Shown: positions 57,537-57,855 of the stretch, piece by piece | Layout: every line of letters starts with the position of its first letter | How positions within the stretch are numbered: position 1 is the stretch's first letter | Source of the DNA: Escherichia coli | GTDB taxonomy: Bacteria > Pseudomonadota > Gammaproteobacteria > Enterobacterales > Enterobacteriaceae | Reading direction: 5' to 3' (one strand) | Assembly: GCF_009931435.1 (NCBI RefSeq) | Contig: NZ_CP043414.1 | DNA: 64,000 nt | Position numbers: made by a program

Positions 57537-57855
57537 TTATCCAGCATGTAAAATAATTGTTATGTGGTCGGATGAGTTCTAATTTAGCCGTCGCCGGGGA
57601 AAAGGGAAAAGGGGAATGCGGGGTTTGTGATGGGAATCAAAAAGAATACGCTAGTGGTAATGCCGGATGCGATGCGTGCCGCGTCCTATCCGACCTGGGG
57701 GAACGTACATGTAGGGCGGATAAGGTGTCCACGCCGCATCCGCCAGTGGCGCGGTGCAGATGCCGGATGCGACGCTTGCCGCGTCTTATCCGGCCTACGG
57801 AACGCACATGTAGGGCGGATAAGGTGTTTACGCCGCATCCGCCAGCCGTTGCAAA

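Follow-up and report, generated by a model that had tools for sequence, protein, structure and literature searches.

The 17-bp sequence at 57562-57578 is very probably the single, already described FadR operator of the fadH promoter, and binding of FadR to it in this strain is predicted. All positions are those of the window, by which we mean the whole stretch of 64,000 nucleotides that was analysed. The box reads ATGTGGTCGGATGAGTT on the plus strand and AACTCATCCGACCACAT on the strand of the gene, with the TGGTCnGA core of FadR operators at 57565-57572, and it lies in front of a 672-aa minus-strand ORF whose counterparts in 5420 of 5426 complete E. coli genomes (90-98.8% identity) bear the name fadH and the product name NADPH-dependent 2,4-dienoyl-CoA reductase. 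The box lies upstream of the fadH ATG, at a distance of 28 nt from its near end and 37 nt from its centre (57570). Our evidence is what can be observed directly, namely the sequence itself, its score against a FadR weight matrix, its identity with E. coli K-12, its conservation, and the layout of the -10-like, ArcA-like and CRP elements around it. The initial annotation had called a FadR-like box at this place from the sequence alone, and this call was correct, exact in its string, its coordinates and its TGGTCnGA core. The fadH operator is already known and the locus teaches nothing new about FadR. The features discussed below are as follows.

57562..57578, minus strand: predicted FadR operator of fadH, a 17-bp imperfect palindrome, called from matrix score, K-12 identity and conservation
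55515..57533, minus strand: fadH coding sequence (2,4-dienoyl-CoA reductase, 672 aa), from the ORF list and annotation matches in E. coli genomes
57581..57586, minus strand: putative -10 hexamer TAAATT, part of the conserved GGCTAAATTAG and separated by 2 nt from the FadR box that follows it
57573..57575, minus strand: probable region of transcription initiation, placed 6-8 nt past the -10 and falling within the left half of the FadR box
57547..57562, plus strand: ArcA-type direct repeat TGTAAAATAATTGTTA (TGTWA-N6-TGTTA), between the FadR box and the ATG
57626..57641, plus strand: CRP site TGTGATGGGAATCAAA (TGTGA-N6-TCACA with one mismatch), equivalent to K-12 'fadH CRP site 2'

Matrix score and chance expectation

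We derived a symmetrised weight matrix from seven E. coli FadR sites validated by gel shift (two from fadL, two from fadD, and those of fadBA, fabA and fabB; primer table of PMC4259882), leaving out fadH, and on this matrix the box scores 15.3 bits. The FadR matrix scan that the initial annotation had proposed as a check was thereby passed: the score falls within the 9.3-19.9 bits spanned by the validated training sites and is the best match on both strands of the 64-kb window. In a leave-one-out analysis the box ranks first or second in the window whichever training site is dropped, and it agrees with the published consensus aaCTGGTCnGACC(T/A)Gtt at 12 of the 16 specified positions (PMC9329746). 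Its two halves are unequal. One is strong (GTGGTC/GACCAC), and the other, the -10-proximal CTCATC, is weak, departing from the consensus CTGGTC at both G positions. A matrix scan of the ygjK-fadH spacer found no second FadR-like site.

A score of 15.3 bits corresponds to p = 2.6e-6 per position, or approximately 0.33 expected matches per 64-kb window on both strands, and 8% of windows simulated under a first-order Markov model reach it somewhere. Within the ~100 nt upstream of fadH the expectation for a match of this strength is ~5e-4. The TGGTCnGA core, which had been put forward as the mark of a FadR operator, is indeed present, but the 8-mer by itself is not significant: it occurs nine times in the window, counting both strands, and does not discriminate. 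The second-best match of the window, at 10636-10652 (TTCTAATCCGATCAGTA, 14.3 bits), sits inside a 256-aa ORF (10556..11326, plus strand), which we take to be garL (glucarate/galactarate aldolase), judging by its neighbours; this match is probably due to chance, because ~0.8 matches of such strength are expected per window. Given a 14.3-bit match in coding sequence and ~0.3 expected matches of box strength per window, the matrix by itself is not decisive. What carries the FadR call is the full 17-mer, together with its conservation and its place directly behind a -10-like hexamer that is itself conserved.

Conservation across Enterobacterales

For the phylogenetic footprint, contigs representing one genome per species were searched with a degenerate pattern for the FadH N-terminus, which returned at least 120 loci from many phyla, and the 300 nt upstream of each locus were scored with the same fadH-free matrix. 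The N-terminal pattern is conserved far beyond Enterobacterales, so that loci from other lineages serve as negative controls (86 loci, mostly alpha- and betaproteobacteria and Bacteroidota). The Enterobacterales sample comprises 19 species, including Citrobacter, Enterobacter, E. albertii, Mangrovibacter, Pseudescherichia, Hafnia, Yersinia, Serratia, Photorhabdus and Xenorhabdus.

Among the matches listed, all 19 Enterobacterales loci carry a box of 13.8-16.5 bits, and 85 of the 86 loci from other lineages stay below 10 bits (median 2.3, maximum 10.6; Mann-Whitney p = 5e-12). Alteromonadales-, Vibrionales- or Kangiellaceae-like genomes have different FadR-like boxes of 11-13.8 bits at 4 of 12 listed loci, for example GTCTGGTCAGACCACAA upstream of fadH in Salinivibrio. 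The core CTCATCCGACCAC precedes fadH in every one of the 19 Enterobacterales species among the matches listed, and the CTCATC half is invariant in the same 19. At the 13 listed loci assigned by name to Enterobacteriaceae the whole 17-mer is identical (13/13), with fadH coding DNA no more than 76-80% identical to that of the window in the case of Citrobacter, Enterobacter and Pseudescherichia. The upstream DNA of Hafnia, Yersinia, Serratia, Photorhabdus and Xenorhabdus does not align apart from the box, and there the longest word in common with the window promoter is the core CTCATCCGACCAC (in Hafnia, the 16-mer AGAACTCATCCGACCA). Taken together, these observations suggest that the box has been kept upstream of fadH orthologues in lineages presumed to bear FadR and is absent elsewhere.

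The distance between box and gene is ~36-64 nt in these genomes, except in Serratia silvae, where 179 nt separate the box from the ATG and extra, partly palindromic DNA has apparently been inserted between the two.

Promoter anatomy and alternative readings

Directly upstream of the box, CTAAATT or CTAGATT is found in 20 of 21 aligned sequences, these being the sequences with the box in the 130-nt upstream segment. From this conservation and from its position we infer that TAAATT is the -10 hexamer of the fadH promoter; it is absent from a stricter promoter scan because the -35 is weak. Counting from this hexamer, transcription would start at about 57573-57575, which agrees with the general tendency of FadR sites to overlap the -10/+1 region (PMC9329746). 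A -10-like TAAATT found throughout the order precedes the box by 2 nt, and the ATG follows it after 28 nt. The earlier proposal that the box overlaps the fadH promoter or 5' UTR is supported, its overlap with +1 depending on the start so placed. In the supplements of genome-wide start-site papers we found no entry for fadH or its coordinates.

Between the box and the ATG, the only match in the window to TGTWA-N6-TGTTA, which we take to be the ArcA consensus, occurs at 57547-57562 (0.28 expected) and shares exactly one base, 57562, with the FadR box. In the alignment this repeat is kept in Enterobacteriaceae and is not found in Yersinia, Serratia, Photorhabdus or Hafnia. On the other side, the CRP site at 57626-57641 falls inside the K-12 gel-shift probe fadH-CRP-site2 (PMC3460868), and its TGA-N6-TCACA is conserved across Enterobacterales. 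Its centre is ~60 nt upstream of the putative start, which fits a class I position and agrees with the published assignment of the fadH CRP sites to class I. The conserved order in the alignment is therefore the half-perfect CRP site TGA-N6-TCACA, a T/C-rich stretch, GGCTAAATTAG, and then the box.

A consensus scan for promoters gave a single match in this region, ATAACA-16-GATAAT on the minus strand (57563-57536). We rejected it as the fadH promoter because its start would lie inside the fadH coding sequence and because other genomes do not keep its -10 (K-12 has GACAAT and Enterobacter GGAAGA). Its span overlaps both the ArcA repeat and the last bases of the FadR box, and it is probably not functional.

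With this anatomy, a FadR dimer (GntR family, winged helix) would bind the 17-bp imperfect palindrome, cover the putative start from 2 nt after the -10-like TAAATT onward, and so block RNA polymerase. Long-chain acyl-CoA (C14 or longer) would bind the C-terminal domain of FadR and take the repressor off the DNA, upon which fadH would be transcribed with the other genes of beta-oxidation. CRP-cAMP would activate from its site ~60 nt upstream, and phosphorylated ArcA on the abutting repeat, with its one base in common with the FadR box, would add repression when oxygen is lacking. Steric occlusion is what we would expect rather than what we observe, because the exact transcription start is itself deduced. 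By analogy with the K-12 literature, we expect FadR to bind here, to be released by acyl-CoA, and to leave fadH derepressed 5-10-fold in its absence.

The proximity of the box to the -10-like hexamer raises the question of whether the 17-mer might be conserved mainly as core promoter and initial transcribed sequence (discriminator, start and first bases of the mRNA), its likeness to a FadR site being secondary. The box does begin 2 nt after the conserved hexamer and contains the putative start, and the invariance of the non-consensus CTCATC in 19 of 19 Enterobacterales among the matches listed goes beyond what a repressor would appear to need. However, the best-conserved part of the box includes the consensus half GACCAC, which lies downstream of the putative start, FadR-lineage gammaproteobacteria such as Salinivibrio have boxes that differ in sequence and yet remain FadR-like, and K-12 genetics demonstrates FadR control of the gene (PMC3460868). 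We consider it highly unlikely that promoter function is the main reason for the conservation. A role as promoter element and FadR binding are not exclusive of each other, and the two explanations are not fully separable because the elements overlap.

Little more can be said for the idea that the main user of the box is some other GntR-type regulator, for instance PdhR, whose GGT-N3-ACC palindrome is similar. PdhR binds weakly at the fadH promoter in vitro and fadH mRNA is reduced without it (PMC7660256), and the PdhR box AATTGGTnnnACCAATT has its TGGT/ACCA halves in common with FadR sites. Against this, the reported binding at fadH is below the cut-off of that study (PMC7660256), and the fadH box has just one of the two halves, TGGT. 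It reads GGTCGGATG where AATTGGTnnnACCAATT has its GGTnnnACC core; the core is incomplete because the second half is ATGA instead of ACCA, giving ATG in place of ACC. Moreover, the flanks of the box fit FadR (AAC.../...GTT), not PdhR (AATT). We regard a main role of PdhR at this box as highly improbable.

That the box should be a chance match without function could be argued from the nine TGGTCnGA in the window, the ~0.3 matches of box strength expected there and the similar-scoring match in coding sequence. This is extremely improbable: chance is excluded by the conservation of the box across Enterobacterales, where its core is invariant in the 19 species among the matches listed and the flanking non-coding DNA is unalignable, and the box is in addition identical to that of K-12 and stands where an operator would be expected in front of a gene known to belong to the FadR regulon. 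Finally, if the start is placed correctly, the transcript would include most of the box, which might then act as a structured RNA element of the fadH 5' UTR, but this is almost certainly wrong, in that the predicted 5' UTR with the first codons folds no better than its shuffles, at -6.4 kcal/mol (z = +0.79; 153 of 200 shuffles fold as well) and the region of the box is unpaired in the predicted structure. A FadR operator remains the reading that we adopt.

Relation to E. coli K-12 and other FadR operators

The box is found in K-12 MG1655 base for base (3231619-3231635), within a block of 52 nt (the 17-mer plus 35 nt of flanks) that is identical between the two genomes: CCGGCGACGGCTAAATTAGAACTCATCCGACCACATAACAATTATTTTACAT. 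Three differences from K-12 fall in the last 20 nt ahead of the ATG, and the first 236 nt of fadH coding DNA are ~94% identical. The fadH gene of K-12, a FadR regulon member, has just one FadR site; its expression goes up 5-10-fold when fadR is mutated, and oleate induces it (PMC3460868, PMC9329746). FadR binding and its release by long-chain acyl-CoA are credited to Feng & Cronan 2010 as cited in these two papers (PMC3460868, PMC9329746). CRP-cAMP activates K-12 fadH through two gel-shift-validated sites, and ArcA-P represses it additively with FadR from a site that overlaps the FadR site by one bp (PMC3460868). The initial annotation invoked the known FadR control of beta-oxidation genes; in K-12, which has the same sequence upstream of fadH, both binding and derepression are reported (PMC3460868, PMC9329746). 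The identity with K-12, the statement of a single site and the one-bp overlap with ArcA indicate that the 17-mer would be the site of Feng & Cronan 2010, and the box appears to be orthologous to the experimentally characterised K-12 site. A full-text literature search with the box sequence, on either strand, returned unrelated papers only.

The fadH of the window is 90-95% identical to that of 5393 E. coli genomes, at best 98.8% identical among 27 others, and 90% identical to that of E. albertii, which suggests that the source is a divergent or cryptic Escherichia lineage, not typical E. coli. Just beyond the 3' end of fadH, at 54743-55470, are two small overlapping plus-strand ORFs (104 and 138 aa), presumably in the position of the K-12 higB/higA (ygjN/ygjM) toxin-antitoxin pair. 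As for the regulator, fadR lies far from fadH in K-12.

The ygjK-fadH spacer (57650-57850) is filled with REP-type palindromic repeats (GCCGGATGCG...CGCATCCGGC) and is shorter than that of K-12 by ~100 nt, equal to one repeat unit. The K-12 gel-shift probe for 'fadH CRP site 1' (PMC3460868) lies in REP-derived DNA (K-12 locus ~340-390, window ~57643-57690). Site 2, the proximal one, is conserved, but the distal one may not be in the lineage of the window, where GCGTTATCACCGG of K-12 is altered to GCATTACCACTAG. A HipB operator (TATCC-N8-GGATA) has also been reported for the K-12 fadH promoter. The fadH upstream region of the window contains no match to it with up to one mismatch, and the only HipB-like palindrome near K-12 fadH (one mismatch; K-12 locus 143-160) falls in the REP unit that is missing from the window.

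What the locus offers is that a divergent Escherichia lineage would keep the textbook three-input control of fadH, with FadR reporting on fatty acids, ArcA on oxygen and CRP on carbon source. It is also mildly useful to know that the core of the box and its place beside the -10-like hexamer are invariant across families of Enterobacterales among the matches listed and that the ArcA repeat is found there in Enterobacteriaceae only. The closest comparison is with the K-12 fadH operator, which has the same 17-mer and flanks in front of the same gene, the same one-base overlap with the ArcA-type repeat, the same CRP site 2 and the same -10-like TAAATT. The two differ in that the host of the window belongs to a divergent Escherichia lineage, with a fadH that is ~94% identical, and in that the window is without one REP unit of the upstream spacer and has an altered sequence at CRP site 1.

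A second comparison is with the gel-shift-validated FadR site of fadD, AGCTGGTATGATGAGTT (PMC4259882), which belongs to another gene and to a promoter with two FadR sites but has the same asymmetric build, a consensus-like CTGGT half combined with the variant half seen in fadH. Read as its reverse complement, the fadD site opens with AACTCATC, as the fadH box does, and the two sites differ in the centre and in the other half (TATGA in fadD, TCGGA in fadH). Since the validated site of fadD has CTCATC too, and this half is invariant in 19 Enterobacterales among the matches listed, it may be more than a degenerate half. It is conceivable, if unlikely, that CTCATC is a selected alternative half-site that tunes the affinity or geometry of FadR binding, or that it has a double use, being recognised also by RNA polymerase at the start site or by a second regulator, e.g. 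PdhR. The fadBA operator ATCTGGTACGACCAGAT, which has been used in structural work on FadR-DNA complexes, shares with the fadH box the 17-bp GntR-type palindrome frame and the placement of a repressor site at the promoter/start region. By contrast, the fadBA site is a nearly perfect palindrome, whereas in the fadH site just one half, GTGGTC/GACCAC, is strong.
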